Positions 1-52,495 of a DNA stretch of 52,495 nt are shown in pieces. Origin of the DNA: a phage; assembly GCA_028879995.1 (NCBI GenBank), contig GCA_028879995.1_4895.1. One strand, written 5' to 3'. Position 1 is the first letter of the stretch. Each line of letters starts with the position of its first letter. The notes beneath the pieces were generated by a model. The model was not told the DNA's origin, did no database searches, and saw only the letters and a program-made list of their open reading frames with translations. Position numbers and translations under genes: made by a program.

Positions 1-279
1 AAAAAAACCCGTGAGGCAACAGAAGAGCTGTTGGCCACTATGCGACGTATCCAACTGGACCCGTTGGAAGTTATGCAACGAGCTATCATCCTTGCTGAAC
101 GTGAAGACGACTATAAAGCAATGATGGATGGTGCGCTTGGTGTTATGCCGTACATGTATCCTAAGCTGAAAGAGTCCGTTGTTAAAGCTGACATCGACCA
201 GAACTTGTCTGGCAATGGCGTTAGCCTGAATATTACGATCGGTGACCAGAAAGTGGTAGACGTTACTGAGGAAGAGTAA
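1..279 (+). CDS. Probable terminase small subunit, C-terminal part (ORF open to the window edge)
   Basis: Frame 1 has no stop from nt 1; ends TAA 277-279 just before the terminase large subunit ATG; call is by position only. Confidence 0.3.
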   Translation, partial: KKTREATEELLATMRRIQLDPLEVMQRAIILAEREDDYKAMMDGALGVMPYMYPKLKESVVKADIDQNLSGNGVSLNITIGDQKVVDVTEEE

Positions 280-282
280 TAA

Positions 283-1731
283 ATGAACCTTGACTTTCAC
301 CTGCATGACAGACAAGGTGCCGCTCTACAGTCTCAGGCAACTGAGATTCTGTACGGTGGCGCTGCTGGTGGTGGTAAGTCTCACCTTATGCGTGTAATGT
401 CGATTATCATGTGCTGCATGATACCTGACTTGCAGATTTACCTTTTCCGCCGAAACTATAACGACCTTACGGCTAACCACATGGTTGGTCCCACAAGTTA
501 TCCTGCCTTGCTGGATGGTATGTGCAAAGCTGGCAAGTGCAAGATTAACTACTCGAGCAACACGATTAAATTCTGGAACGGTGCGAACATCAAACTCTGT
601 CACCTCCAGTACGAAAAAGATATTTATACCTACCAGGGTGCGGAGATTCACGTTCTGCTGATGGATGAGCTTACTCACTTCACAGAAACGATGTACCGCT
701 TCTTGCGTAACCGTGTCCGACTCGGTGCTCTCAAAGTACCTGAGAACTTTTTCCGGCCACTGCCACTCATCTTTTGTGGGTCAAACCCTGGTGGTGTTGG
801 TCATAACTGGGTTAAGCGCACTTTCGTAACTGCTGCTCCTCCGATGAAAATCGTTAAGCAGGAAAAACGCGAAGGCGGTATGGCTCGTCAGTACATTCCG
901 GCTAAGATGACTGATAACCCTACGCTGATGGAAAACGACCCTGACTACGGTGACCGTCTTGAAGGTCTTGGTGACCCGGCTCTTGTTGCTGCGATGAAAG
1001 AGGGTGACTGGGATATTGTTGCTGGTGGTGCGCTTGACGACGTATGGTCAACCAAGTGTATTCTGCCGCGTATGCGTATTCCGAAAGGCTGGACTATCGA
1101 ACGTTCTCTTGACTGGGGTTCTACTCACCCGTTCTCTGTTGGTATCTGGGCTATCGCAAATGGTGCCTCGCTTACAGACGACGAAGGCAATGAGTACTTT
1201 ATTCCGCGTGGTTCAATTATACGTATAGCTGAATGGTATGGGTGCTCTGAAAAAGAAGCTAACAGGGGTATTAAGCTATCTGCTGCCGAAGTCGCTCAAG
1301 GTGTTCTTCGCCTACAGGAAAATCTGCAGGCTGGTGGCTGGATTCAAAGTAACGTTAATCCTGGTCCGGCGGATAGTCAGATTTATGCGTGCAAGGAAAA
1401 AGACGTTGAGACTATCGCGAAGAAAATGGAAGACGAAGGCGTAACCTGGGTCAAGGCCGACAAGTCACAAGGTTCGAGAATAAATGGCTTAGAGCTATTC
1501 CGTCAGCTTCTGAAAAATGTTAAGATGGACGAAACGGAAAAGCCGGGCATTTATTTCATGGAAAACTGTCCAGCAGCCATAAACACGTTGCCGGTTCTGC
1601 CGCGTGACAAGAACAACACGGAAGATGTCGACACGAACTCTGAAGACCACGTATACGATGATTGTCGTTACATGGTGTTGCGTGGCATCAACCGTTATAC
1701 TACCAAGCTCAAAATAAATATGGGACGGTAA
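283..1731 (+). CDS. terL: Terminase large subunit
   Basis: Walker A GGAAGGGKSH, Walker B-like HVLLMDELTHF, acidic C-terminal nuclease-like region; 482 aa; directly precedes portal. Confidence 0.9.
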   Translation: MNLDFHLHDRQGAALQSQATEILYGGAAGGGKSHLMRVMSIIMCCMIPDLQIYLFRRNYNDLTANHMVGPTSYPALLDGMCKAGKCKINYSSNTIKFWNGANIKLCHLQYEKDIYTYQGAEIHVLLMDELTHFTETMYRFLRNRVRLGALKVPENFFRPLPLIFCGSNPGGVGHNWVKRTFVTAAPPMKIVKQEKREGGMARQYIPAKMTDNPTLMENDPDYGDRLEGLGDPALVAAMKEGDWDIVAGGALDDVWSTKCILPRMRIPKGWTIERSLDWGSTHPFSVGIWAIANGASLTDDEGNEYFIPRGSIIRIAEWYGCSEKEANRGIKLSAAEVAQGVLRLQENLQAGGWIQSNVNPGPADSQIYACKEKDVETIAKKMEDEGVTWVKADKSQGSRINGLELFRQLLKNVKMDETEKPGIYFMENCPAAINTLPVLPRDKNNTEDVDTNSEDHVYDDCRYMVLRGINRYTTKLKINMGR

Positions 1732-1732
1732 A

Positions 1733-3295
1733 ATGTCGATAACCCCAAGCAGCACGCCGAACGTCGGATACCAGCGTCCTGAGCTGACTAAGAACGCTGG
1801 TAAGTACCGAATGATTAAGGACTGCATCGAGGGTCAGGAAGCTGTTAAAGCACGCGGTGATTTCTACTTGCCCCGTCCTGACCCTACGAACTGCACAGAA
1901 GAAAACATGATGCGGTATAATTCGTACCTGCGTCGCGCTGTGTTCTACAACGTACTGCAGCGAACTCTTTCGGGTATGACTGGCCTGGTATTCCAGCAGC
2001 AGCCTGAGATGCTAATGCCTGACGATATGGAAGTGCTGAAAGTAAATATCGACGGTGCAGGCATTGGTGCTATTCAGCAAATGCGTAAGTGCTTCAAGTC
2101 TGTTCTGGCTTTTGGTCGAGCAGGTCTGTTGACTGACTTCCCTAAAGCACGTATCGGTGAGTTTGGCGAGTCCATTGGCTTTACCCGTAAAGAGCTGATG
2201 GACGGAGATGTACAGCCGACAGTAACGCTGTATATGCCATGGCAGATTATAAACTGGCGAGAAGAGTATCGCAACGGTAAAGTGATGCTCACTCAAGTTG
2301 TCATTTGCGAACAGATACCGGGTGTTACTGATGGCTTTCAGCAAGACTACACACCCGTGTGGCGTCACCTTTACCTGGATGAAGAAGGCAATTGCAACCA
2401 GTCTTTGTGGGTCAATAAGGGCGACAAGAACGCGCAGAACGTCTCCGGTGGTGCGTTGTATGTCACGCAAGAAAATGTTGTCTTACGCGACTCCAATGGC
2501 TTACCGTTGAAGTTTATTCCGTTCCAGTTTATTGGTTCTGAAACAAACAGCGCTGAGATTGACCCTCCGCCGATGTACGACTTAGCTGTGCTTAATATTG
2601 CACACTACCGTAACTCTGCTGACTACGAAGAGTCATGCTTCGTAACAGGTCAACCCACAGTATGGGCGTCTGGTCTTACTGAGGCATGGGTTGAAGATGT
2701 TCTGAAGGGTGAACTGCGACTCGGTTCGTTTGGTGGTATTCCGCTGCCGGCTAACGCCGCTGTAGGTATTATCCAGACCAACCCTAACACCCAGCCGTTT
2801 GAAGCGATGAAGCAAAAAGAAGCACAGATGATTGCAATCGGTGCTCGTCTGATTCGTGAGAATGGTAAGGTAGAACGACGCGAAGTTGAGATTAAGAATG
2901 AAGCTGCATCTGAAGCTTCGCTTATCGTAACTGTTGCGCAGAACGTTGAAGCTGCTTATCGTAAAGCAATCGAATGGTGTGGCCTGTTCTACGGACACCC
3001 TAAAGAAGAAATTACGATTAACCTCAGCTACAACTTCATCTATAGCCAGTTGACTTATCAAGAACGTCAGCAACTGGTTAACGAATGGATTGCCGGTGCT
3101 ATCACGTTTAGTGAGATGCGTAGCAATCTTAAACAGGCTGGCATTGCTAAGCTCACCGACGAAGAAGCCAAGAAGCTAATTGATGAAGAGCTGGCTGAAC
3201 GCGATGCGCGTGAGGTAGCAAAAGAAGCAGAAAAGAACGCTCAAGCAGCTAAGAACAGCGATGGGCAGGAAAATAATCCAGAAAAAACTGAATAA
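1733..3295 (+). CDS. Portal protein
   Basis: 520 aa ORF immediately after terL (2-nt gap), acidic C-terminus; position and size. Confidence 0.7.
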   Translation: MSITPSSTPNVGYQRPELTKNAGKYRMIKDCIEGQEAVKARGDFYLPRPDPTNCTEENMMRYNSYLRRAVFYNVLQRTLSGMTGLVFQQQPEMLMPDDMEVLKVNIDGAGIGAIQQMRKCFKSVLAFGRAGLLTDFPKARIGEFGESIGFTRKELMDGDVQPTVTLYMPWQIINWREEYRNGKVMLTQVVICEQIPGVTDGFQQDYTPVWRHLYLDEEGNCNQSLWVNKGDKNAQNVSGGALYVTQENVVLRDSNGLPLKFIPFQFIGSETNSAEIDPPPMYDLAVLNIAHYRNSADYEESCFVTGQPTVWASGLTEAWVEDVLKGELRLGSFGGIPLPANAAVGIIQTNPNTQPFEAMKQKEAQMIAIGARLIRENGKVERREVEIKNEAASEASLIVTVAQNVEAAYRKAIEWCGLFYGHPKEEITINLSYNFIYSQLTYQERQQLVNEWIAGAITFSEMRSNLKQAGIAKLTDEEAKKLIDEELAERDAREVAKEAEKNAQAAKNSDGQENNPEKTE

Positions 3296-3300
3296 AGCTA

Positions 3301-3329
3301 TTTACTTTCGGTTTACCTGGCTATATAAT
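3301..3329 (+). promoter_or_regulatory. sigma70-like promoter TTTACT-N17-TATAAT (scaffold/capsid operon)
   Basis: Exact -35 TTTACT, 17-nt spacer, -10 TATAAT right after the portal stop. Confidence 0.55.
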
Positions 3330-3337
3330 CCTTCATG

Positions 3338-3410
3338 TCAACCGCGCAACAGCCGGCCACGAGAGTCTGCAGGGCTCAGTGGATTTCGGATGGCTGGCTG
3401 CGCGGTTTGA
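3338..3410 (+). other. Long imperfect hairpin in the 5' leader of the scaffold/capsid transcript
   Basis: Arms tcaaCCGCGCAacagcc (3338-3354) and ggctggctGCGCGGtttga (3392-3410) pair over about 11 bp with bulges around a 35-nt loop. Confidence 0.35.
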
Positions 3411-3472
3411 CCAAAACCTGTTCAGAGCCCACTTGAGTGGATTGAGCCCCTCTCATATAGGATTGTAAAATT

Positions 3473-4186
3473 ATGGCACTTAAAACAGTTGTAACTGACC
3501 TTACCGAAGTTGATGAAGGCTTCCGTGGCCTGTATATCAAAGACGAAGCATCTGGTGCATTCCGTTTGGACGTTGAACCAGACGAAAAAACGCTGAAAGA
3601 ATTAGAAGACCTGCGCAAAGAAAAACAGCGTATGGAACAGCACACCAAAAAGCTTCTCGAAGAAAAGAAAAAAGAAGCTGAACGTGCTCGCCTGGCTGAA
3701 GAAGAACGCGCACGTCGTGAGCGTGATGTTGAATCTCTTGAGCGCTCTATCAAAGAGAAACATCAGGCTGAACTGGAACAGTATACTAATCGTCAGGCCC
3801 AGCTGCAAGCTCAGCTGGAAGCGCAAATGGTTGATAACCTGGCGCTGAACCTGGCTAACCAACTCTCTGACACCCCGGCACTTATTATGCCACACATCAA
3901 GGCCCGACTGCGCGCTCAGGAAATTGATGGTAAGTGGCGTACTACTGTCGTGGATGTTATGGGTAACCCGACTGCTACAACGCCAGATGAACTAGTGGAA
4001 CATATGCGCGCTGATAAGCAGTTTGCACCTCTTGTGCGTGGAACCAAGGCTGGCGGTGGCGGTGCCAACGGCGGCGGAGCTAATCCTGGTGGGAACGGCG
4101 GTGGCGAACAGCACACTTTCGGAGGCGGGGACGACCGCATAGCACGTGCTCGTGCTAAAATCCAAAACACACAATGGGGCAAATAA
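3473..4186 (+). CDS. Scaffolding protein
   Basis: 237 aa, highly charged coiled-coil-like E/K/R/Q-rich body, Gly-rich C-terminus; lies between portal and capsid gene. Confidence 0.6.
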   Translation: MALKTVVTDLTEVDEGFRGLYIKDEASGAFRLDVEPDEKTLKELEDLRKEKQRMEQHTKKLLEEKKKEAERARLAEEERARRERDVESLERSIKEKHQAELEQYTNRQAQLQAQLEAQMVDNLALNLANQLSDTPALIMPHIKARLRAQEIDGKWRTTVVDVMGNPTATTPDELVEHMRADKQFAPLVRGTKAGGGGANGGGANPGGNGGGEQHTFGGGDDRIARARAKIQNTQWGK

Positions 4187-4189
4187 TTT

Positions 4190-5167
4190 ATGTCACTGTA
4201 TATTTTTAACGAACAAGTACGTTCTACCGCCACCGAACTGGTTGACCAGGACGTACAGAAGTTTAACGAAGCTTCTGCAGGTACCCTTATTCTGGGTAAC
4301 CAGTACGTAATCGGTGATTACGTTGAGCAGGCAATGTGGCAGCTGGTTGACGGTATCGCTACCCGCCGTAATGCTTACGCTGGTACCAACAAAGTTGATG
4401 CGCAGACTCTGGGCCAGATTCTGGACCGCTCTGTTAAAATCGACGGCCGTGTTGGTCCTCTGAACATTACCGGTACTATGATGCGTCGCATCGGTGCAGG
4501 TGATACTGAACCAGCAGCTGTTGTTGCTGCACAGGCATCTGCTGCAATGTTCCAGGATTACCTGAACACCACTGCTGCATGTCTGGTAGCTGCTATCGGC
4601 GCAAACGCTGATGTTGTTCTGGACGTAACTTCAGGCTCCGGTGCTGCTGCAAACATCACCATGCAGAACCTGAACAAAGTCAACGCGAAGATGGGTGACC
4701 GTTCTCAGCAGATTCGTGCGTACATCATGCACTCTACTGCGTTCCACTCCCTCATCGACCAGGCTATCAACAACACAGAACACCTGTTCCAGATTGGTGA
4801 CCTGAACGTGTACAAAGACTTCCTGGGTCGTCGTTATGTCGTTTCCGACATCCCGGCTCTGGTTGATGGCGCCGGTGCTTCCGCTAAGTACCGCACTCTT
4901 GGTCTGACCCCGTCTGCTGCAATAGTTCAGGTCGGCGGCCTGTACGACATGGTTACCTCCGAGCAAACCGGTGGTGAAAACATCCTGCGTCAGATGCAGG
5001 GTGAATACGACTTCAACGTGTCGCTGAAAGGCTACAGCTGGGTCGGTCACAAAGCTGGTCAGTCTCCGACTGATGAAGACCTGGCTGCTCAGGCGTCCTG
5101 GTCTAAAGTTGCGACTTCCAACAAAGACACCGCTGGTGTTATGTTGCTGGCTAAGTCTGCAATCTAA
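4190..5167 (+). CDS. Major capsid protein
   Basis: 325 aa ORF directly after scaffold, followed by a strong intrinsic terminator (5190-5217). Confidence 0.7.
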   Translation: MSLYIFNEQVRSTATELVDQDVQKFNEASAGTLILGNQYVIGDYVEQAMWQLVDGIATRRNAYAGTNKVDAQTLGQILDRSVKIDGRVGPLNITGTMMRRIGAGDTEPAAVVAAQASAAMFQDYLNTTAACLVAAIGANADVVLDVTSGSGAAANITMQNLNKVNAKMGDRSQQIRAYIMHSTAFHSLIDQAINNTEHLFQIGDLNVYKDFLGRRYVVSDIPALVDGAGASAKYRTLGLTPSAAIVQVGGLYDMVTSEQTGGENILRQMQGEYDFNVSLKGYSWVGHKAGQSPTDEDLAAQASWSKVATSNKDTAGVMLLAKSAI

Positions 5168-5189
5168 CCCACAAACGGGACTAACAAAA

Positions 5190-5217
5190 GGCGAGCTGAC
5201 GAGCTCGCCTTTTTTTA
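5190..5217 (+). terminator. Intrinsic terminator after major capsid gene
   Basis: 8-bp GC-rich stem GGCGAGCT/AGCTCGCC, 4-nt loop, then T7. Confidence 0.75.
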
Positions 5218-5246
5218 TTTACACGTATAAAGTTCTGGTATATAAT
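5218..5246 (+). promoter_or_regulatory. sigma70-like promoter TTTACA-N17-TATAAT (neck/tail operon)
   Basis: Exact match to the recurring promoter pattern directly after the terminator. Confidence 0.6.
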
Positions 5247-5272
5247 CGGACTAAACTTGCTGGAGGCTTTCT

Positions 5273-5773
5273 ATGGCATACACACTTGTTGTGGAAGACG
5301 GTTCAATTGTTCCGGGTGCTAACTCGTATGTTAGCACTGCAGAAGTTGATGAGTTTATCACTAACGAAGGTATTCTCATTCAACCAGGAACTGACCCGTA
5401 CTACCAAGCTGCCAAAGCAGCTATCCGACTTGATAACCAGTTTAACTGGCTAGGTCGTAAGGTCAGCAAAACACAGAGCATGGCTTGGCCCCGTACTGGC
5501 CTCGGTGCATGTAATGTTGACATCGCGGAGTCTGTAATTCCGCGAGAAGTTAAGCTGGCACAGCTTTATATGATGGCCAGTGTATTGAGCTACGACGGTG
5601 AAGAAGGTGTGCGTAGCGACCAGGCTTTGCGCCGTAAGAAAGTTGGTAACCTGGAGATTGAATACTTCGACTCCAAATCAGGCGTTACCGGTGCAACTGA
5701 CCTTTGGACGTCAGACGTCAGGGCCATGCTCAAGCACCTTGTGGGTGCATCACTGAGAGCGCGGAGAGTATAA
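5273..5773 (+). CDS. Head-tail adaptor/connector-like protein
   Basis: 166 aa, first gene after the capsid terminator/promoter, RBS GGAGG; start of a translationally coupled neck operon. Confidence 0.35.
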   Translation: MAYTLVVEDGSIVPGANSYVSTAEVDEFITNEGILIQPGTDPYYQAAKAAIRLDNQFNWLGRKVSKTQSMAWPRTGLGACNVDIAESVIPREVKLAQLYMMASVLSYDGEEGVRSDQALRRKKVGNLEIEYFDSKSGVTGATDLWTSDVRAMLKHLVGASLRARRV

Positions 5774-6261
5774 TGATTCGTATACGCCTTGAACGTCGCG
5801 ACAAACAAAAGTTCGAGTTCACCTACCGTGCCTTTAAGTCGTTTGAAGGTCAAGGCGTATCAGTAGGTGTTCATCCAGAGCACAACAGACGTATAAATCC
5901 CAGGGACCGTATAACAAACGCCGAGCTAGCAATGGTGCATGAGTACGGTCTTAACGGCCTGCCAGAACGAAGCTTTCTTCGTAGTGCTGTTGGTGGCAGG
6001 GGTAAAGGCCGACAGGCAATAAACAAAGCTTTCCGCGATAATGTACCTGCTGTTCTCAGAGGAAGCATGACTGCGCATGAGCTTAACGACAAAATAGGTC
6101 GTATGCTTGTTGACGCTGTTCACGACAGAATGGACAGTGACGTGCCACCTCCTAACACCGAGCTGACAGAAGAACGCAAACGCGGGCCAGGTACACTTAG
6201 AGAATCTATGCAGTTGTATGATTCGATAGGGTACAAAGTTGGCAGAAACTGGAGGCTATAA
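5773..6261 (+). CDS. Neck/head-completion protein
   Basis: ATG 5773 overlaps upstream stop (TAATG); tool start 5704 is an upstream extension; 162 aa basic protein. Confidence 0.35.
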   Translation: MIRIRLERRDKQKFEFTYRAFKSFEGQGVSVGVHPEHNRRINPRDRITNAELAMVHEYGLNGLPERSFLRSAVGGRGKGRQAINKAFRDNVPAVLRGSMTAHELNDKIGRMLVDAVHDRMDSDVPPPNTELTEERKRGPGTLRESMQLYDSIGYKVGRNWRL

Positions 6262-6638
6262 TGCTCAAGATAACTTCGCTAATGAAGGATAAAACCTTTG
6301 TAGCATTAACAGATGTTCTTCTCCGAAATGATTCACGCTTACCAAACGGCGACTTCGAAGACGAATATACAGCTGCAAAGTATCTGTGTAACATTCAACC
6401 TGGTGCAGCTACTAACCAGCCTAACCTGTTGACTAAAGACGATGGCGAGCATGAGTTCCCACGTATTGCGATATACTGTGGACAAGAACTAAAGCTCGGA
6501 GACTTCGTTATATACGAAGACCAGCCATACCGTGTATTCCGTATCGACCCATGGAGTCGTCATGGCCACTACTACGTTACAGCAATTCTCCATAAAGGAC
6601 CTCAGGGAGCTCGTTCAGAAGCTTTTAACATTACCTGA
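6261..6638 (+). CDS. Hypothetical virion protein
   Basis: TAATG coupling to the upstream gene; 125 aa. Confidence 0.3.
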   Translation: MLKITSLMKDKTFVALTDVLLRNDSRLPNGDFEDEYTAAKYLCNIQPGAATNQPNLLTKDDGEHEFPRIAIYCGQELKLGDFVIYEDQPYRVFRIDPWSRHGHYYVTAILHKGPQGARSEAFNIT

Positions 6639-7089
6639 CGGTGCATGCATTATTGGTGAAGAGTCTGGTACAGTTGATGGTACGCCGTATGTTTATCTGC
6701 GTCCTGGTGATGCTTATGACTTCGGACCTCCTAGAACCAGACAAGGCTCTGACGGCTTTGAGTACGTCAGCAAGCCAATGATGACAGCTGTACGTATTAC
6801 AGCTGTCGGTAAGAATGCTGCTGAGCTAATGCGTAAGCTACACATAGCGCTGGGTAGTTCACCAGCTAAGCAGTTTAACCGTTTACGGCATTATGCAATA
6901 ACCAAAATATCGAAGATTGATAATGTCGGTGGTGCTATTGGTGCAGGCTATGCTCAGAAGTCAATGCTGACTGTTGATATTAGCTATGTGCATAAAGTTA
7001 AAATTGAGCAACCGTACATCTACAAGGTTGACATCACTTGTATGGATGACAACGGTAACAAAGCGACTGGTACAGTAGAGGAACCGTAA
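6562..7089 (+). CDS. Hypothetical virion protein (possible neck/tail terminator)
   Basis: First ATG at 6562; overlaps the previous ORF by 77 nt in another frame; start uncertain. Confidence 0.3.
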   Translation: MATTTLQQFSIKDLRELVQKLLTLPDGACIIGEESGTVDGTPYVYLRPGDAYDFGPPRTRQGSDGFEYVSKPMMTAVRITAVGKNAAELMRKLHIALGSSPAKQFNRLRHYAITKISKIDNVGGAIGAGYAQKSMLTVDISYVHKVKIEQPYIYKVDITCMDDNGNKATGTVEEP

Positions 7090-7712
7090 TGGCAACTGAA
7101 GTAGACCCGGAACTGCAAGCGCAGCTGGATAAGCTAACCACTGCTGTCCAGCTCATTCATGACTTCGGTATGTCAGGCGACCCAAACATCCCTAACCCGG
7201 AAGGCGGTGTCATACGCACGCTCGAAGGCATTAACGCTGCAATCAATGAAGCTATACCAAACTTTGAAAACGCTAACGAAGCTGCTATCCAGGCGCGTGC
7301 TGCTCGTGACGCGGCTATTGCAGCCAAAGAAGCTGCAGAAACGGCAGCTGAACAGGCCACAGTAGCTTCGACGTCAGCAATCTATGAGTACGGCAACGTT
7401 GCAAGTGCAGCTACCGTAACTATACCTGCTGCATCTAAAACAATTGTCAGCCTTACTCTTAACCAGCCAAACACCGTAATTAATATCGGTGGTGTATCTG
7501 ACCCGTCTACTGTTGCGCGTCAGATTACTATTGCTATTAAGCAAGGCACTGGTTCTAACAAGGTGACTTCTTGGGATCCAAGAATAAAATGGGCCAACAA
7601 CAGGAAGCCCGTTCTGTCATTCCTTGTGGGTTACACAGATGTTGTTACGTTGCTGACCTTTGACTCAGGCGCAACTTGGATGGGTTTCTTTAACGGTGGA
7701 TGGATTAAATAA
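7089..7712 (+). CDS. Hypothetical virion protein
   Basis: 207 aa, Ala/Glu-rich helical N-terminal half; TAATG coupling on both sides. Confidence 0.3.
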   Translation: MATEVDPELQAQLDKLTTAVQLIHDFGMSGDPNIPNPEGGVIRTLEGINAAINEAIPNFENANEAAIQARAARDAAIAAKEAAETAAEQATVASTSAIYEYGNVASAATVTIPAASKTIVSLTLNQPNTVINIGGVSDPSTVARQITIAIKQGTGSNKVTSWDPRIKWANNRKPVLSFLVGYTDVVTLLTFDSGATWMGFFNGGWIK

Positions 7713-36273: not shown

Positions 36274-36819
36274 TTATTCTTCCCAAGGAGCTGCTGCACC
36301 GTCGTCAGCACCAGGTGCCGTTGCAGTAGCACTCGCCTTCGTTGAAGTACCCGCACCTACACCTACTTTCTTCGTCGTCGATGCAGTTGCTTGAGAATGA
36401 CCGCCTACTGCAGTAGTTGCTTCAGTTGACGCTTTGTATTCGCGAATATCGTTTTGTGGGTCGTACTCACCGGTCTTGTCGATACGAACACCAACTTTAC
36501 CAGCTACAATACGGTTTTCTAGTAAGTCGGTAGAAGTCAGTTCAACAATACCCAGCGCACGACACAGCGCAGACAGTTTGCGATGACCGATTTCAACAGC
36601 TTGTGCATTAGGGTTGGAGTAGGTAATCATGTCAAATACAACACGGTTAGCGAACTCACCTTCTTGCACTTTCAGACGCAGGGACAGGTAAGAACCAGTG
36701 CCTGCTTTAGTCGGCTTCAGCTCAACCTCTTCAATCATGAAGTTGTACCAGCCTTTCTGGATAGGGTCAAAAGACTGTTGCGGTTCGACGGTAGAGCTGT
36801 TGAAGTTTAATTCAGCCAT
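36274..36819 (-). CDS. Putative single-stranded DNA-binding protein
   Basis: Structured N-terminal domain, then a low-complexity Gly/Ala/Thr/Ser linker and acidic tip DDGAAAPWEE (SSB-like architecture). Confidence 0.4.
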   Translation of the reverse strand: MAELNFNSSTVEPQQSFDPIQKGWYNFMIEEVELKPTKAGTGSYLSLRLKVQEGEFANRVVFDMITYSNPNAQAVEIGHRKLSALCRALGIVELTSTDLLENRIVAGKVGVRIDKTGEYDPQNDIREYKASTEATTAVGGHSQATASTTKKVGVGAGTSTKASATATAPGADDGAAAPWEE

Positions 36820-44861: not shown

Positions 44862-45209
44862 TAAGCTTATTTTACAAACTGATTAATATTTAAACTATAA
44901 TTAAATATATGGGCTATAAGAGTATGATTTTATTACTCTTTTACTAACCATAATATATGGGCTCCTTATAAAAGATTAAGGGGGTAAAAAAGGGGGTACA
45001 AGTACCGGATAAAAGGGGGGATATATTTATTTATTATTATTATTATTATTATATATTATTAATTATATTAGAAGTAATAAAAACAGCTACTTAGAGGCGT
45101 CTATATGTATGATCCGGTTTATCTCTTTATTAATATCAGAACCGGATGAAAAAAATTTACGCCGGCGAAAAATAATAAAAAACCGGACTGATAAATAAAT
45201 CTGTAGACG
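44862..45209. repeat. AT-rich repeat-dense noncoding region (candidate replication origin)
   Basis: Two ATATATGGGCT copies, purine-rich AAGGGGGTA repeats (44977-45021), (TTA)n microsatellite near 45027-45051, inverted repeat ATCCGGTT/AACCGGAT (45112-45148); no ORF. Confidence 0.45.
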
Positions 45210-45238
45210 TTTACACTATAAAAAAGATGTGTTACAAT
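45210..45238 (+). promoter_or_regulatory. sigma70-like promoter TTTACA-N17-TACAAT
   Basis: Upstream of the Hjc-like resolvase gene. Confidence 0.5.
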
Positions 45239-45292
45239 ATTTATCAATGTTGCTGATTACCAAAACTTTGAATTGTATACGAGGCTGAATAA

Positions 45293-45724
45293 ATGGTTAA
45301 TATAAGACAGAAAGGACAGAACTTTGAGCGCAAAATGGCTAAGAAGTTCAATAGCTCGTTCGGATTAACTGTTGAGCGCAATCTTCAACAGTCTATTAAT
45401 GGCGGGGATGACTTGCTGGGTGTACCGTTTTTCAGTGTTGAACTGAAGAAGCACAACACCAAGTCTATCGGAACATGGTGGAGACAGTGTGCGGCGTCGG
45501 CAAAGGCTCAGAACAAGATGCCAGTGCTTATATACGAACTACCAAGAAAACAGCCTACCGTGGTGATGAATAAGGCTGATGTGATTGACTGTTTTCCAAG
45601 TGGCACGACTTTTAACGAGGCATCGAACCGCCTCTTTGTGGGTTTAGTAGAATTAACATGGGAACAATTTTGCCGGGTCTACAACTATTACGTTGCGCCC
45701 GGCACTCAATATCACGTCAATTAA
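45293..45724 (+). CDS. Hjc-like Holliday junction resolvase (PD-(D/E)xK)
   Basis: N-terminal KGQNFERKMAKKF then GGDDLLG...FSVELKK, matching archaeal Hjc-type motif order; RBS GAGG; promoter 45210-45238. Confidence 0.5.
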   Translation: MVNIRQKGQNFERKMAKKFNSSFGLTVERNLQQSINGGDDLLGVPFFSVELKKHNTKSIGTWWRQCAASAKAQNKMPVLIYELPRKQPTVVMNKADVIDCFPSGTTFNEASNRLFVGLVELTWEQFCRVYNYYVAPGTQYHVN

Positions 45725-45906
45725 TCTTGTTTCAGCTCGTCACAAATGACACGCTGATTTTTGGCAGGTATAATACCAAGATTTAGTAAGGTGTATGGAC
45801 TATCGGCGACGCATTGTTCAACGGTAGTCCATTCAGGTTTGGATTCAACAATTTCGTAATTACAGTCGTGAGCTGCAATACATGTTGACAGTATTAAGCC
45901 AATCAC
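45721..45906 (-). CDS. Hypothetical small protein
   Basis: 61 aa; GTG start overlapping upstream stop (GTGA); convergent with resolvase gene. Confidence 0.3.
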   Translation of the reverse strand: MIGLILSTCIAAHDCNYEIVESKPEWTTVEQCVADSPYTLLNLGIIPAKNQRVICDELKQD

Positions 45907-46082
45907 AAGTAATCTCCATCAACCAGAAACTCAAACAATTGGTTGTAAACGTTGCAACCTTTAGCGAAAGAGCTTTCAGCAGGTTTACCGTCGCGGACAA
46001 TCATCATATACTCACCGCCATGGATGTCCACCCAGTATTGCATGCCACCTTTGACCGGATTACGTTGCAGAAATTTAAACAT
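45903..46082 (-). CDS. Hypothetical small protein (59 aa, below the ORF-track cutoff)
   Basis: ATG 46082 with RBS AGGAGT, TAATG coupling; read by eye as MFKFLQRNPVKGG...FLVDGDYL. Confidence 0.3.
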   Translation of the reverse strand: MFKFLQRNPVKGGMQYWVDIHGGEYMMIVRDGKPAESSFAKGCNVYNQLFEFLVDGDYL

Positions 46083-46327
46083 TATTTACTCCTGATTCCA
46101 AGTTTATTCAATAACCAAATTGTCATGTCAACCCATGTTAACGGTACAGTTTTCGGGGGTTGATAATCCCAGCAGCTTGCAGTTCTTTGTATTTCTGCTT
46201 GGCGCCGCTCCGCTTCGCGTAATACCGCATCGTCAGAAGTGCCGGCAGAAAAAAGATCGGTAACACCAGATAAATCGCGTTGATTAACACGTCGAGCAAT
46301 GTCATATAAATCATCCTTAGAAAACAT
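46082..46327 (-). CDS. Hypothetical small protein
   Basis: 81 aa; ATG 46327. Confidence 0.35.
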   Translation of the reverse strand: MFSKDDLYDIARRVNQRDLSGVTDLFSAGTSDDAVLREAERRQAEIQRTASCWDYQPPKTVPLTWVDMTIWLLNKLGIRSK

Positions 46328-46503
46328 AAGCCAATACCATAAAAATTATCAGAAAGATCCCAACCAGCTTCCTCATAGCCCGACCTTCAGCATATGCAGG
46401 ATTCACAACAGAATACTCAACAACATGTTTACAGCGGACCATAAGGCCTCCACTTGTGGGTTAATTCAATCATGAGGACTTTTGGCAAATCCTCATTGTT
46501 GAA

Positions 46504-46704
46504 TCACTCCATCATTACCTGAACTATTATTATACACTCTTTATTGAAGCGGGTAAACACCTTTCCTCCATTTGTGCGTTTAGCCCCAGATTTTAGAGCT
46601 GACTGGCACCAGACATGCCACTCCTCAACTGTCAAGAATTTTTGTTCAGCTTTGGGTGGCAATCCATTGGCAAGGTCTACCGTAGTAAATTTGACTAGTG
46701 GCAT
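46504..46704 (-). CDS. Hypothetical small protein
   Basis: 66 aa; ATG 46704 overlapping upstream stop; contains a promoter-like site 46529-46557. Confidence 0.3.
   Translation of the reverse strand: MPLVKFTTVDLANGLPPKAEQKFLTVEEWHVWCQSALKSGAKRTNGGKVFTRFNKECIIIVQVMME
46529..46557 (-). promoter_or_regulatory. sigma70-like promoter (minus) TTTACC-N17-TATAAT inside small ORF 46504-46704
   Basis: Internal promoter-like site. Confidence 0.4.
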
Positions 46705-47093
46705 CACTTGACCTCAAATTTTGACTCGTCATATTCCGGATCAGTCACGTCCCGGGTAGCACAATTTTTGATTGCCTCCCAGTAACGTTGGGCATCATCA
46801 CCATCGACATAAACTGTCCAGTGGCCGTAACCACCTTCAAATCTGTCCCAGGCTTGTTCCCAGACTTTGCCATCTTCCAGCTTGTACCAAGTTGGACGAC
46901 TGTCAAACTCGCGGATTGGATGGTACCCCATCAAAGGATTCATCAGGTCAATAATGTCTTCCCGACTAATCTCCTGGTTCTCCCACAACACCGTCATGAA
47001 TTGCTCAAACTTGAAGGCGTTTGGCAGAACTTTGATGACTTCACCATCACGATATACGGTATAGGTGCCATCTTCGCATTTTGCACTGTACAT
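46704..47093 (-). CDS. Hypothetical acidic Trp-rich protein
   Basis: ATG 47093 preceded by conserved leader and hairpin cassette; 129 aa. Confidence 0.4.
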   Translation of the reverse strand: MYSAKCEDGTYTVYRDGEVIKVLPNAFKFEQFMTVLWENQEISREDIIDLMNPLMGYHPIREFDSRPTWYKLEDGKVWEQAWDRFEGGYGHWTVYVDGDDAQRYWEAIKNCATRDVTDPEYDESKFEVK

Positions 47094-47162
47094 GTTTCTC
47101 TCTCTTGTTGTGAATAATTTCAATCATGAACTATCACAATTTTGGATAGTTCATTGTTGAAA
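47094..47162 (-). promoter_or_regulatory. Conserved leader plus upstream hairpin cassette, copy A
   Basis: Perfect 8-bp hairpin GAACTATC/GATAGTTC (47128-47152) abutting a leader whose 16-nt core is identical at 47109-47124 and 47773-47788. Confidence 0.5.
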
Positions 47163-47336
47163 CTATGCTAACTTTGTTGCGATCTGAATTGTCAGCCTGA
47201 AATCTTCCATCAAGTTATCAAACTCTTTGGAACCACCAACAGCATCAGATATTTGATCTTTCACAATTTGGGCATTTGATTCCAGTAATTCAATCAGGTG
47301 CGCCAATTCGTCTTCAGTCAATTTCAGATCTTTCAT
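47163..47336 (-). CDS. Small acidic helical protein, paralog family member 3 (MKDLKLT...)
   Basis: ATG 47336 (ATGA overlap with upstream stop); 57 aa; N-terminus MKDLKLTEDE shared with two other small ORFs. Confidence 0.4.
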   Translation of the reverse strand: MKDLKLTEDELAHLIELLESNAQIVKDQISDAVGGSKEFDNLMEDFRLTIQIATKLA

Positions 47337-47591
47337 AATGCATCCACCCAAGCCATAACTTTTGCCAGTCTTACAACGTCTTCATGGTCTCGCTCGCCAT
47401 CAGAAAATTCGCTGGCGATGATACCCATAATTGACGCCAGATTCATGTTGATGATGTATGAGTGTTCCCGCACTTCATCAATTCCTGAATCTATCACCAA
47501 TTCCGCAAATTCCTGCGAACCTTCATCCCATTCAGCCCAATACTGCTCAGCATAAAAGTCCAGTTCTTTTTTTCATCTCAATATCAGTCAT
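47333..47591 (-). pseudogene. Small acidic protein gene interrupted at an A7 homopolymer (frameshift)
   Basis: ATG 47591 with RBS GAGGAG gives MTDIEMKK then stop; with A6 instead of A7 (plus 47567-47573) the frame stays open to TGA 47333-47335. Confidence 0.35.
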
Positions 47592-47596
47592 TTTGA

Positions 47597-47755
47597 TTAC
47601 TCCTCAGAACCTGAAAATTTGTCGTCAATGGCTTCAACAATATAATCAAGAGTTGAAGTGTGAGAACTATCAGAAAAAGTGCCCATCTTCTCTAACTCAA
47701 TCATCATATCCCGCAAGGCCATCGCCTGGTCTTTGGTCAGTTTGATTTTAAGCAT
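47597..47755 (-). CDS. Small acidic helical protein, paralog family member 2 (MLKIKLT...)
   Basis: ATG 47755 preceded by conserved leader/hairpin cassette; 52 aa. Confidence 0.4.
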   Translation of the reverse strand: MLKIKLTKDQAMALRDMMIELEKMGTFSDSSHTSTLDYIVEAIDDKFSGSEE

Positions 47756-47819
47756 GTTTCTCTCCTGTTGATTGTGAATAATTTCAATTGATGGCACTAC
47801 TTGAGTGCCATCTCAAAAA
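47756..47819 (-). promoter_or_regulatory. Conserved leader plus upstream hairpin cassette, copy B
   Basis: Perfect 9-bp hairpin GATGGCACT/AGTGCCATC (47790-47812) abutting the same conserved leader. Confidence 0.5.
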
Positions 47820-48386
47820 TTACTCAGTTTCTTGTTCTTCAATTTCAGGTTTTTCTTCAGTCTTAGGTTTTTCGCCTGTTACTGATTTGCCCTCAGTCAC
47901 TTTACCAGATTTTACATCATTACGGTAATAGGACATATAGGATTGGACAACACGTTTTGCCCTAATATCATCCGCTTCCATCCCACAGGCTTTCATGGCA
48001 TCAGCCAGCGCCAATTTGGAATCTTCTTTGTCCATCAAATTGTAATCCTTGAATACTGCATAGCAGGTATCTTTGGTTGACGGACCGGATGAAGTTTTGC
48101 GGGTGCCACCTGCAGATGCACGTGATGCCGCAACTTTGACCTCTTCAACTTCCAGTTGGTTAAGCTCATCAAACAAGGCTTTCACCAGCACTTCTTTTGA
48201 GTCTTTGACACTTACAGAACTTTCATCATTAAGGGACTTGATCATCTTAATGATTTGGTTATTGGCAAAGTACTGCAGGCTATCCATCTGCACTACAATA
48301 GTCCCAAGACTTTCAGTAGTCAGACCAGATTTTACAGACTCGACAGAAAAGGCGGAAGTCAGGTAAACGTAGTTAGTAGCAGTCAT
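47820..48386 (-). CDS. Hypothetical protein
   Basis: 188 aa, Lys/Glu-rich C-terminal tail; ATG 48386. Confidence 0.45.
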   Translation of the reverse strand: MTATNYVYLTSAFSVESVKSGLTTESLGTIVVQMDSLQYFANNQIIKMIKSLNDESSVSVKDSKEVLVKALFDELNQLEVEEVKVAASRASAGGTRKTSSGPSTKDTCYAVFKDYNLMDKEDSKLALADAMKACGMEADDIRAKRVVQSYMSYYRNDVKSGKVTEGKSVTGEKPKTEEKPEIEEQETE

Positions 48387-48481
48387 TTTGATGTATCCTC
48401 GTCAATAGAATTTTGGTAAGCGCCAATCCCTGGCAAGTAAGTCCAAACATGACAACTTTTGTCAAGCTGTCATGATTGAAA

Positions 48482-48661
48482 TCACTTCAATTTGTTAAGT
48501 ATTTTGGTCAATAGCTCAACTCTTTCTTCCTGGTCAGTAGGGTCAAAGTTTTCAATTGACTCCTTCCAGTCCTCCAGCAGTTCCTTTTCATTAAATATTG
48601 AAATGTCAAGAAATTCAACCAATAACTCAACTTCTTTTTTAGTCAATTTCAAATCTTTCAT
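48482..48661 (-). CDS. Small acidic helical protein, paralog family member 1 (MKDLKLT..., 59 aa, below the ORF-track cutoff)
   Basis: ATG 48661 with RBS AGAGGG; read by eye as MKDLKLTKKEVELLVEFLDISIFNEKELLEDWKESIENFDPTDQEERVELLTKILNKLK. Confidence 0.4.
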   Translation of the reverse strand: MKDLKLTKKEVELLVEFLDISIFNEKELLEDWKESIENFDPTDQEERVELLTKILNKLK

Positions 48662-48675
48662 CTTGTATGACCCTC

Positions 48676-48825
48676 TTACCCTTGATATTTGACTACTTGC
48701 GACTGGATGAAATCAACACAATCTTCCACGTCCATTGATTCAAAATCTGGAACTGGTCCATTATTAATGTTGACACACCATAGCCCTTCATTACAATCAT
48801 ACCAAAGCGTATAGTTGTCTTTCAT
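48676..48825 (-). CDS. Hypothetical small protein (MKDNYTLWYDCNEG...)
   Basis: ATG 48825 with RBS AGGAGT; 49 aa with four Cys; first gene of the leftward small-gene cluster. Confidence 0.3.
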   Translation of the reverse strand: MKDNYTLWYDCNEGLWCVNINNGPVPDFESMDVEDCVDFIQSQVVKYQG

Positions 48826-49042
48826 AATAGTTACTCCTGCTATTAGTTTCCAGGCGTGGCTACTGCTTCCAATAGCCACTAGTTGAAACTATTACCAGCG
48901 TTACTATCAACAAGAAACATGTTACCAAATTGTTAAAGAGCGGTCTGGTACTATTCGACCAGGTAAAGTTGATGTTTGCGCATCTTGACGACACGCGCCA
49001 GACAAGACGCTTGACACATTCATCATTCGTCTTGATGTAATA

Positions 49043-49071
49043 ATTATAGGCCAGTCAATCAATGTTGTACA
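49043..49071 (-). promoter_or_regulatory. sigma70-like promoter (minus) TGTACA-N17-TATAAT for the leftward small-gene cluster
   Basis: Plus-strand attata 49043-49048 and tgtaca 49066-49071. Confidence 0.45.
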
Positions 49072-49182
49072 TAAAAGAATTGCAAGTTTATGCAAGTTTT
49101 TAGAAATGATAATCACTTGCGATTGAGAGTGGTTCTCGTATGCAATTGATATAGTTTCGCATGTAATTACTCACTTCAAAAT

Positions 49183-49240
49183 GGTCGGCAGGGGTTATAA
49201 TCACATAGGGGTGCCACTTAAAGGAGCCGGCGAAATTATT
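49183..49240. repeat. Approx. 58-nt GC-rich repeat unit R1
   Basis: Shares with R2 the pattern GGT.CGGC.GGGG-TAAT-C.CA-GGGGTGC.AC.T-AGGAGCC.GC.AAATT.TTTAT. Confidence 0.5.
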
Positions 49241-49358
49241 TATAAAAATATAATTTCAATCTGAATTATAGACGCTTTGTGTTATAACGGCCGAAGTAGT
49301 TCATACGGTAATTGTATCAATCGCAATAGTTACCAAAGTAATCATTTCAATTGAAATA

Positions 49359-49416
49359 GGTGCGGCGGGGGGTAATTTCGCAGGGGTGCTACCTGCCAGG
49401 AGCCAGCAAAATTTTT
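49359..49416. repeat. Approx. 58-nt GC-rich repeat unit R2
   Basis: Second copy about 176 bp downstream of R1, same orientation. Confidence 0.5.
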
Positions 49417-49566
49417 TATTTTTTGGTATTTTCTCCTTATCAGGACCAATCATCATCAGAGTAATACGGCAGGAGCTAACCTTTTGCTTAACACAATAAT
49501 AAGTGAAGCCCCTCTAAAAATTTTTTATATTTTTCGGAAATTGTGTAGACACTCACTAAAAAGTGG

Positions 49567-49595
49567 TGTACTTTCTCTCCTCCACGCGCTATCAT
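49567..49595 (+). promoter_or_regulatory. sigma70-like promoter TGTACT-N17-TATCAT for the rightward DHFR/kinase operon
   Basis: About 40 nt upstream of the first plus-strand gene. Confidence 0.4.
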
Positions 49596-49645
49596 TAATG
49601 TGAATCATCAAACGGCCTCACGGTCTCCTACTTGTGGGTAACATT

Positions 49646-50122
49646 ATGAAAATTGTTCAATTAGAGCCATATCCGCCTCAATTGGCTATCGTTTGTAGCG
49701 AAAAAGAGCACGAAGAGCTCCAAAAACTGATGGATTTGCCTGATTTTGGCAACTGGAATGACCGGGAAACGCGTAATGCATCTACTTTTACGTTCACTCG
49801 CGTTAACTATCCGTACCTGTTAATTGTCGTCGAACTGTATCACCCGGACGACCTGAAGTACAACACCATTTCCCACGAAGGCATTCACGTAATGTCATCG
49901 CTGATGAACTATGTAGGGCTTAAATACGACCCAGAAAACGATGAATGGTACGCATATCAGCATGATTTCATCGTAAATGCCATTTGTAAGGCCCATGACG
50001 AGTATATAGAGCGTCAAAAAACGCCAAAAACTAAGCCAAAAATCGAAACAGGTAACCATCCTGCAATACTGCCACAAGACGTAATGAACTCGCTTTTGAC
50101 TGACACTACTGGGGACTTTTAG
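49646..50122 (+). CDS. Hypothetical protein with HExxH motif (possible small zinc metallopeptidase-like protein)
   Basis: ATG 49646 (tool start GTG 49634); single HEGIH motif; first gene after plus promoter 49567-49595. Confidence 0.3.
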   Translation: MKIVQLEPYPPQLAIVCSEKEHEELQKLMDLPDFGNWNDRETRNASTFTFTRVNYPYLLIVVELYHPDDLKYNTISHEGIHVMSSLMNYVGLKYDPENDEWYAYQHDFIVNAICKAHDEYIERQKTPKTKPKIETGNHPAILPQDVMNSLLTDTTGDF

Positions 50123-50797
50123 GTGATTAATATAATCTTCGCAATGGGCCAAAATGGGGAATTCGGGTTATCTCCGGAGTTTATGAAGCATCAGGTTGAC
50201 TCGTGTAAGACCATGGATGAGGTTCGTGCGCTTCCTAAATCGGGTCTCCCTTGGAAATGTCCGTCAGATATGCTCTTTTTCAGGACTATGACTAATTCAA
50301 TTGCGTCAGAACCAGGCTATAATGCGTATCAGCAACTACGTGGACAGTTCCCAAATGACCAGTTGCGAAACATGATAGCAGATGTAACTGTAAAAATGGT
50401 CGGGCATAGTGTATTGTTAGCCGGTCGTAATACGTATATGACTATGAGTCTGCCTATGTCAGCCCACAGAATACTGCTGCCTGTATCTCGTCAGATTATG
50501 GCTTCAGAAGGCTACAATAATTTGGGTGAGATGGCAGCAGACCTTGAATCCAGAGGTACTGACGTCTGGATTGTAGGCGGTGCCGAGTTGATACTTTCGG
50601 CCCTTGAAGAGCATGCAAAAGACTTACTCCGTATCGACAACATGTTTATCAGTACAATCAAGCAATCAGGTCCAAGTGATATTTTAATGGATTGTAGCAA
50701 ATTAATGATGTACATTGATAGCGACTTCACTTATAATGATGAATATGTTGATAACAAACAAGTTCTGATACAACGGTACAGGAGTTTACACAAATGA
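50123..50797 (+). CDS. Dihydrofolate reductase-like protein
   Basis: GTG 50123; DHFR-like N-terminus MINIIFAMGQNGEFG, LPWKCPSDMLFFRTMT (compare E. coli MPWNLPADLAWFKRNT), IVGGAELILSAL; contains a long insertion. Confidence 0.55.
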   Translation: MINIIFAMGQNGEFGLSPEFMKHQVDSCKTMDEVRALPKSGLPWKCPSDMLFFRTMTNSIASEPGYNAYQQLRGQFPNDQLRNMIADVTVKMVGHSVLLAGRNTYMTMSLPMSAHRILLPVSRQIMASEGYNNLGEMAADLESRGTDVWIVGGAELILSALEEHAKDLLRIDNMFISTIKQSGPSDILMDCSKLMMYIDSDFTYNDEYVDNKQVLIQRYRSLHK

Positions 50798-51300
50798 ACA
50801 TCATAATCGAGGGGCCCGACAATGCTGGTAAAAGTACACTTATTGAGTTCCTTAAATCTCATACTGGCCGCAGTGTTATTCATAATACTGTTGATAAAGA
50901 CCCCGAATCGGTCATGGCTAAACAGGCCAAAGAAAACGCGTTGGAGGGCGATTGCATTTATGACCGTAGCGCTGTTATATCTGAGTATATCTATTGCCTG
51001 GTTCTTCAACGTACGCCTGTCATCAATATTAATGTATCACATGTAGCAGATATGTGTGACAACGCCATCGTTATCTTTTGTATGCCGCCTGTTGAAAAGG
51101 TACTGGCAACTACAAAAGACGAGATGCCTGGCGTTGTGGAAAATCTTGAGGCGTTATACAATCAGTATGACAACCTCATTGACGAGCTGGTTATGATGAG
51201 TAAGCAGTTCTTCATTTACGACTGGACTGTTGAAGAAGATGGTCCTGAAGCAGCTCTCGAATACATCAACGAACGTATTAATAAGGAGTGGAACAAATGA
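50794..51300 (+). CDS. Deoxynucleoside monophosphate kinase (thymidylate-kinase-like P-loop kinase)
   Basis: N-terminal P-loop IIIEGPDNAGKSTL; 168 aa; ATGA coupling to the DHFR-like gene. Confidence 0.55.
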   Translation: MNIIIEGPDNAGKSTLIEFLKSHTGRSVIHNTVDKDPESVMAKQAKENALEGDCIYDRSAVISEYIYCLVLQRTPVININVSHVADMCDNAIVIFCMPPVEKVLATTKDEMPGVVENLEALYNQYDNLIDELVMMSKQFFIYDWTVEEDGPEAALEYINERINKEWNK

Positions 51301-52016
51301 GCCCAGTATACAATACCTCAGTCACGCTGTCCGCAACCGTAAGCGGCGTCAACAAGACAGTTACTGTGGGTTCAACTAACCCAAACCTGACAGGCGAAGA
51401 CCTGCTGCGCCTGGCCAAACGTGCACTTGAAGATAACGAAGTAACTGGTACTGAAGGCGTTAACATTGAAATTAACGTCGAAGGATGTCCGCACAGCATC
51501 AGTATTGCTACCTCTTCATTGCCTGAAGACGAGACTCGTGAACAGCTGGAAATTAAAAAGTTCAACGATGAGCTGGAATATCGCACAGGTGAGATGTTCA
51601 GCAGTGCACTAAACTGGTACTTGTGCAAGGCTTCAAACTACGCTGGCGCTCCTATGTCAGACCGTATGTTAGCTGATATGTCAGCACGTGAAATTGCTAA
51701 AGGCTGGGCGCATGTACAGATGCTGCAAGAGCATATCTGCAAGCTGGAAAGCTGCAATAAAGACGCGTCTGAGCTTATTACTGCCTATAAGCGACAGATT
51801 AACGACCTGCAGCAACTGATGGGTAAACGCGCTGAAGAATATGAGGCTGAGATTCGCAGTCTTAATGGTACAGCTGTTGCTAACAACCGTGCTTTCAGCG
51901 AAGAGCGTAAAGCGCTTATCGCCCAGCGTGACGCTGAAAAACGTCGTGCAGACGACCTGGCAGACCGTCTTAACTTTATCCGTAAGCACATGGATGCTAT
52001 GGAAGGGGTAATCTGA
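51297..52016 (+). CDS. Hypothetical protein
   Basis: ATG 51297 with RBS AAGGAG (tool start 51288 is GTG); 239 aa, coiled-coil-like C-terminal half. Confidence 0.4.
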   Translation: MSPVYNTSVTLSATVSGVNKTVTVGSTNPNLTGEDLLRLAKRALEDNEVTGTEGVNIEINVEGCPHSISIATSSLPEDETREQLEIKKFNDELEYRTGEMFSSALNWYLCKASNYAGAPMSDRMLADMSAREIAKGWAHVQMLQEHICKLESCNKDASELITAYKRQINDLQQLMGKRAEEYEAEIRSLNGTAVANNRAFSEERKALIAQRDAEKRRADDLADRLNFIRKHMDAMEGVI

Positions 52017-52306
52017 TGGACCTGTTCGATATGGTCGAACATCCTGAAGTAAACGGCTTGGCGGAAGCTAAGCCTTTTAACTGGGATGAATTCGTAGCAG
52101 GCAAACCTGCTGTAACCCACAACGGGCAGATTGCATATTACGGAGGCCATAGCGAACATCCGATGTGCACTCACCTGTACAACGCTATCACAACCATATC
52201 CGACGAAAACGTTATTAAGTACGGAAAAGAGGTAATGCCTTTTCTTGTAGATGAACGCGGTTACTTCGAAGGTAAATGGTTCCCGTTTCTGGTAGAAATG
52301 GCCTAA
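52016..52306 (+). CDS. Hypothetical protein
   Basis: 96 aa; ATG overlaps upstream stop. Confidence 0.35.
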   Translation: MDLFDMVEHPEVNGLAEAKPFNWDEFVAGKPAVTHNGQIAYYGGHSEHPMCTHLYNAITTISDENVIKYGKEVMPFLVDERGYFEGKWFPFLVEMA

Positions 52307-52422
52307 AAACCGGATAAATATAAAGGCGTCTAAGCTAGTTCTTCATCTGTATAAGCTACTTATTCGCCTTTCTACTGTAGACTTTCTCATCATCTCTCTA
52401 GACACTTCATTTTTATATTCTG

Positions 52423-52451
52423 TTTACTTACTTCGCGTAACTCGTTATAAT
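52423..52451 (+). promoter_or_regulatory. sigma70-like promoter TTTACT-N17-TATAAT
   Basis: Exact consensus upstream of the gene starting at 52484. Confidence 0.55.
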
Positions 52452-52483
52452 CCCGACTATCCGGATTAACGAGGACGATACCA

Positions 52484-52495
52484 ATGGCAAAACCG
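52484..52495 (+). CDS. Start of a gene truncated by the window edge
   Basis: ATG 52484 with RBS GAGGA, downstream of promoter 52423-52451. Confidence 0.3.

Follow-up and report, generated by a model that had tools for sequence, protein, structure and literature searches.

The window, by which we mean the whole stretch of 52,495 nucleotides that was analysed, carries a series of small genes on its minus strand, one of which is interrupted. Genes are named after their counterparts in Salmonella phage BP63. The features of the locus are as follows.

47333–47591, minus strand: frameshifted copy of BP63_09; the intact gene encodes an 85-aa acidic helical protein of family phrog_35114, function unknown
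47567–47573, minus strand: the lesion, where the sense strand has an A7 run (T7 on the plus strand), from the alignment and the comparison with BP63
47547–47591, minus strand: residual open reading frame MTDIEMKKRTGLLC, followed by TGA at 47549–47547, from the translation
47600–47605, minus strand: Shine-Dalgarno sequence GAGGAG, 8 nt before the ATG at 47591–47589, read from the sequence
47163–47336, minus strand: downstream gene BP63_08, 57 aa, phrog_29626, from annotation and profile match
47597–47755, minus strand: upstream gene BP63_10, 52 aa, phrog_35350, from annotation and profile match

As written, the codons are ATG ACT GAT ATT GAG ATG AAA AAA AGA ACT GGA CTT TTA TGC TGA, and the interrupted product comprises 14 codons. 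An earlier note on this DNA had let the frame read MTDIEMKK and then stop; the actual reading is MTDIEMKKRTGLLC, and its stop codon sits 210 nt upstream of the start of BP63_08. The start signals proposed in that note, the ATG at 47591 served by GAGGAG, were found as described; they lie on the minus strand, with a spacer of 8 nt. The GAGGAG extends into the upstream gene BP63_10 (which ends in GSEE), sharing bases with its last codons and its TAA, and among the 11 Rosemountvirus relatives in the alignment it is unchanged in 10.

The additional A falls in codons 7–9 of BP63_09. With one A removed from the run, the frame stays open for 85 codons and ends at TGA 47335–47333, and the ATG of BP63_08 (47336–47334) shares the sequence ATGA with this stop codon. 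Both the reopening of the frame at the T7 run and the ATGA overlap had been claimed from the letters alone, and both hold. The same is true for the acidic character of the product. The repaired protein has 85 residues with a pI of 4.08 and 21 D/E versus 6 K/R; an example peptide from downstream of codon 9 is ELDFYAEQYWAEWDEGSQEFAELVIDSGIDEVR.

Megablast of the region retrieved Salmonella phage BP63 (KM366099 / NC_031250, Rosemountvirus) with 99.9% identity, and a whole-genome comparison showed that the window is a circularly permuted BP63. Positions 1–45031 of the window correspond to BP63 7407–52437 and positions 45089–52495 to BP63 1–7406. Since the window starts inside a gene, the equivalent of BP63_19, the linearisation point looks arbitrary and not like a physical end; window positions 1–7 (BP63 position 7407) are themselves an A7 run within this gene. 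The full list of differences from KM366099 consists of two substitutions, 57 extra AT-rich bases and one indel. The sole indel is the run at 47567–47573, which is T7 in the window and T6 in BP63. In the BP63 record the gene is uninterrupted and carries the annotation BP63_09 with 85 aa (AIT13830.1, UniProt A0A140XG40).

The substitution at 36758 (T for G) turns CCG into CAG and gives P21Q in the SSB-like BP63_64. It is the only coding substitution relative to BP63; the protein has 181 aa, an SSB-like look and an acidic tail with PWEE. The substitution at 45020 (G for T) extends a G5 run to G6 and adjoins low-complexity sequence. The 57 extra bases lie at 45032–45088, precisely where the BP63 record would be joined end to end, and the window is the fuller assembly of the two by this number of bases. 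This low-complexity stretch (TATTATTATT...) is preceded by G-rich repeats (AAGGGGGTAAAAAAGGGGGTAC...AAAAGGGGGG). Homopolymers of at least 6 occur 27 times in the window, and 26 of these match BP63 in length. Only the A7 site differs, which is one of only four runs of at least 7.

The repaired protein is 100% identical to BP63_09 and matches phrog_35114 over positions 1–85 of 85 (E = 1.3e-59). The full-length match and the identity both argue that the frame downstream of the lesion is not open by chance. Judged as a member of phrog_35114, the copy in the window has the full-length match and the conserved position, and its frame is interrupted by a stop after 14 codons. A tblastn search matched 55 phage records, and 53 of them encode the protein in a single piece without interruption, namely 42 Rosemountvirus-like records (94–100% identity), vB_SE1_KM (54%) and ten Loughboroughvirus-like records (about 42%). 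Aligned at the nucleotide level, all 15 sampled relatives keep the frame. Wherever the run exists among the sampled relatives it is A6 (11 of 11), in the context ATG AAA AAA GA(A/G); phage birk reads AAA TTA GAA at the site of the run, and vB_SE1_KM, SE4, S144 and AEV23 have no run there. The gene order BP63_10-like, BP63_09, BP63_08-like together with the ATGA overlap is common to nine phages (BP63, BEC1-17, rivia, birk, JEP7, PA13076, KE24, SenM-1 and brorfarstad).

Across 11 Rosemountvirus sequences pN/pS versus BP63 ranges from 0.00 to 0.21, and the variable columns are distributed 8/4/21 over the first, second and third codon position. By these substitution patterns the gene is under purifying selection, and strongly so across the relatives. 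The view of the earlier note that this gene works, or did so until recently, is well supported by its intact state in BP63 and in the 53 records and by this selection. The A7 allele, on the other hand, is a singleton among all collections searched. The exact 28-nt pattern gave 0 matches in IMG/VR, in metagenome contigs and in genome contigs, and the truncated products that a gene caller would report for the A7 allele (55 aa from a TTG start, 54 aa from a GTG start) are nowhere on record.

AlphaFold2, run with a six-sequence alignment, predicts a compact five-helix bundle (pLDDT 96, pTM 0.86). A Pfam search with BP63_09 gave no match, a PDB sequence search gave none under E = 0.1, and in a structure search of BFVD the sole significant match was the protein of BP63 itself. 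BP63_09 is thus confidently modelled as a small acidic helical bundle, and these searches gave no informative relative in sequence or fold.

The gene belongs to a block of small leftward genes from BP63_02 to BP63_13. In the record of vB_SalM_Sz, 4,263 identical bases stand at both ends and span the equivalents of BP63_01 to BP63_13, so that the gene is present twice in that record. The related phage fHy-Eco03 has a repeat of 3,699 bp which was defined by PhageTerm and restriction digests (PMC8145870). In relatives with represented ends, the small-gene block is part of a long direct terminal repeat. Window positions of about 45164–49404 correspond to the repeat of relatives (PP236111.1 and MW602648.1). 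As the BP63 record and the window hold a single copy of the block, the repeat was probably collapsed in both assemblies. Judging from its position, the block could be expressed early.

At 46082–46327 (minus strand) we observed an 81-aa open reading frame which shares 68% identity (E = 3e-45) with Gp05 of fHy-Eco03. The BP63 record annotates BP63_04 there in another frame (window 46138–46305), probably a misannotation. Of the proteins screened in the fHy-Eco03 study (PMC8145870), Gp05 showed the clearest toxicity to E. coli in both assays. Neither Gp05 nor g09 of fHy-Eco03 qualifies as the orthologue of BP63_09: the profile finds nothing in the terminal repeat of fHy-Eco03, and Gp05 matches this other open reading frame of the window. 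The location of BP63_09 in a terminal-repeat block of small genes together with the adjoining homologue of a host-toxic protein makes an early role in host interaction a reasonable guess from position.

Near the locus we further noticed an exact 17-nt repeat, ATTGAAATTATTCACAA, at 47108–47124 and 47772–47788 (minus strand). After the two copies, at distances of 3 and 7 bases, comes GAGAGAAAC-ATG, at the start of BP63_07 and of BP63_10, respectively. Two matches were found where 0.23 would be expected by chance, and the repeat could be a leader, promoter or operator in duplicate, bracketing the segment from BP63_08 to BP63_10. Consensus scans around the locus were uninformative, with 20 promoter-like sites (13.6 expected) and 3 terminator-like sites (3.4 expected).

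Several observations suggest that phages of this kind can do without the gene. The repeat of fHy-Eco03 aligns to window positions 45292–49257 and has no counterpart of 47340–47772, that is, of BP63_09 and BP63_10. A search with the family profile found no BP63_09 homologue among the proteins encoded in this repeat, and the flanking genes are kept; BP63_10 and BP63_09 form a cassette of two genes which is missing from fHy-Eco03. A Logan contig (SRR11397567_472) agrees with phage JEP7 at 99.7–100% identity on both flanks of a deletion of 150 bp, by which gene 10 has lost its end and gene 09 its start. At positions 330–350 of this contig the deletion lies at a short microhomology, and the start of the BP63_10-like gene there runs on, in the wrong frame, into the middle of the BP63_09-like gene. 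The deletion is probably carried by a subpopulation in that sample. Finally, among 1.84 billion representatives searched exhaustively with HMMER, only about six small-protein clusters were found. On the basis of the absence from fHy-Eco03, the deletion in the contig and the narrow distribution of the family, BP63_09 is an accessory gene with a narrow distribution whose loss is tolerated at least sometimes.

How then did the window come to have seven A residues? We give a probability of about 0.5 to a real and very recent +1 insertion in this dispensable accessory gene. The additional A would have to be present in the phage DNA itself, beyond the consensus. It could have arisen from A6 by slipped-strand mispairing in DNA replication at the short homopolymer; short A/T runs have been described as probably hypermutable through replication slippage (PMC1088944). 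The A7 allele would make the 14-residue peptide in place of the 85-residue protein and would be null or, at best, very leaky, which may be tolerated because the gene is a non-essential accessory gene. Within this explanation the window would be a re-sequenced or sibling stock of phage BP63.

The competing explanation is an artefact of sequencing or assembly, in which case the phage DNA has A6 and the gene is intact and normally expressed. We regard this as quite plausible, at odds somewhat short of even. It would readily account for a single-base change in length in a homopolymer that is among the four longest of the genome, for the A6 that the same genome shows as KM366099/NC_031250, and for an allele that turned up in no other collection searched. 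Indeed a singleton at a homopolymer, the classic site of sequencing errors, speaks against a real mutation, as does the second difference from BP63 at 45020, which likewise extends a homopolymer (G5 to G6) and lies at the edge of the G run next to low-complexity sequence. The gene is, moreover, strongly constrained in all relatives, and such strong purifying selection suggests that in nature phages would pay for losing it, even where the laboratory tolerates the loss.

We note, however, that the assembly is not generally prone to homopolymer errors. The other 26 runs of at least 6 have the same lengths as in BP63, and one deviating run out of 27 argues against a platform with systematic errors of this type. 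The non-synonymous P21Q is plausibly real and, being present, argues that the window is a genuinely different clone with real mutations. Together with the 57 additional AT-rich bases which were resolved, it makes the window look like a careful and independent assembly of a slightly diverged clone. The apparent dispensability of the gene likewise counts in favour of a real mutation.

A third explanation, also raised in the earlier note, is that expression depends on slippage, the A7 run yielding full-length protein by design or as a phase-variable switch. We consider this very improbable. The full-length product could be reached by two routes. RNA polymerase could slip and deliver a transcript one A short. 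Alternatively, the ribosome could shift by +1 at AAA-AAA-AGA, with tRNA-Lys re-pairing one base forward and AGA, a rare arginine codon in enterobacteria, in the A site. The geometry would allow such an event: the target frame is open from a TGA overlapping codon 6 (the ATG just ahead of the run), and in the zero frame a stop (codon 15) is reached 6 codons past the run. The run therefore lies within the interval in which a shift could restore the frame. Shine-Dalgarno sequence and start codon are intact as well, and low-level compensatory frameshifting is on record for a G7 run of herpesvirus thymidine kinase (PMC5009743).

The comparative data nevertheless tell against it. A programmed site would stay out of frame in the relatives, so that the missing conservation of an out-of-frame arrangement argues against programming: the 15 sampled relatives in the alignment and the 53 records found by tblastn all have a single frame, the sequence in birk is AAATTAG, and the run is missing altogether from the distant relatives. 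The annotation of BP63 contains no phage RNA polymerase, and for detectable indel bypass the E. coli enzyme is reported to need at least 7 T and still more A (PMC6260861). Programmed slippage sites have runs of 8–9 nt or more and are conserved as interrupted or overlapping open reading frames (PMC1088944). The present run has 7 nt compared with the 8–9 nt or more for bacterial RNA polymerase, and the arrangement of two open reading frames is not conserved. Any rescue would be incidental and probably amount to a few percent at most. With all sampled relatives in a single frame, with A6 or without the run, and with A7 found nowhere else in the searches, slippage-dependent expression is left unsupported. 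Comparison of the sequences excludes slippage as a feature of the gene family; traces of full-length protein may still be made from the A7 allele. The lesion is no programmed frameshift but either an ordinary mutation of recent date or an error in sequencing.

A related thought is that the A6/A7 run is a contingency switch by which replication slippage toggles an accessory gene of the terminal repeat off and on. This we hold to be exceedingly improbable, and so is its corollary that the off allele is slightly leaky through the +1 shift at AAA-AAA-AGA. If there were such a switch, the phage would gain by bet-hedging on hosts whose defence system recognises the protein.

Returning to a real insertion as the preferred reading, we would expect an effect on the neighbouring gene. 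Ribosomes would terminate 210 nt before the start of BP63_08, so that the coupling of termination and reinitiation at the ATGA is lost, and BP63_08 would presumably have to rely on its own weak Shine-Dalgarno-like sequence GGTGGA. A real A7 would also show that BP63_09 is dispensable for the propagation of the phage. The significance is nevertheless small. The gene is already known and annotated in the reference record, and the lesion, an ordinary homopolymer indel that occurs as a singleton, is not a recoding signal; at most it marks a position that should be checked at read level before the genome is annotated or deposited. Whether BP63_09 is a candidate for host interaction is a question apart from the frameshift.

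Compared with known systems, the run resembles the A9 run of Thermus dnaX, the site in Shigella mxiE and the A9 runs of IS elements (PMC1088944) in that a run of A stands at a frame junction. Those sites are, however, 8–9 nt or longer and conserved, whereas the run here has 7 nt and the interruption is not conserved. With the "savior" indels of herpes simplex thymidine kinase (PMC5009743) the lesion shares the indel within a coding homopolymer of 7 nt, and as in that gene low-level frameshifting could give a trace of full-length product. It differs in that the run consists of A instead of G and that any selection for the indel, like any rescue, would be hypothetical here. The closest likeness is to the homopolymer frameshift pseudogenes and sequencing errors of phage and bacterial assemblies. 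There, too, a change of one base in an A/T run breaks a conserved open reading frame and is a singleton among close relatives, and no feature sets the A7 lesion apart from them. With the BP63_09 orthologues of Rosemountvirus and Loughboroughvirus, the window has the locus, the neighbours, the Shine-Dalgarno sequence and the ATGA overlap in common, and it differs from them by one additional A, which cuts the product to 14 residues.
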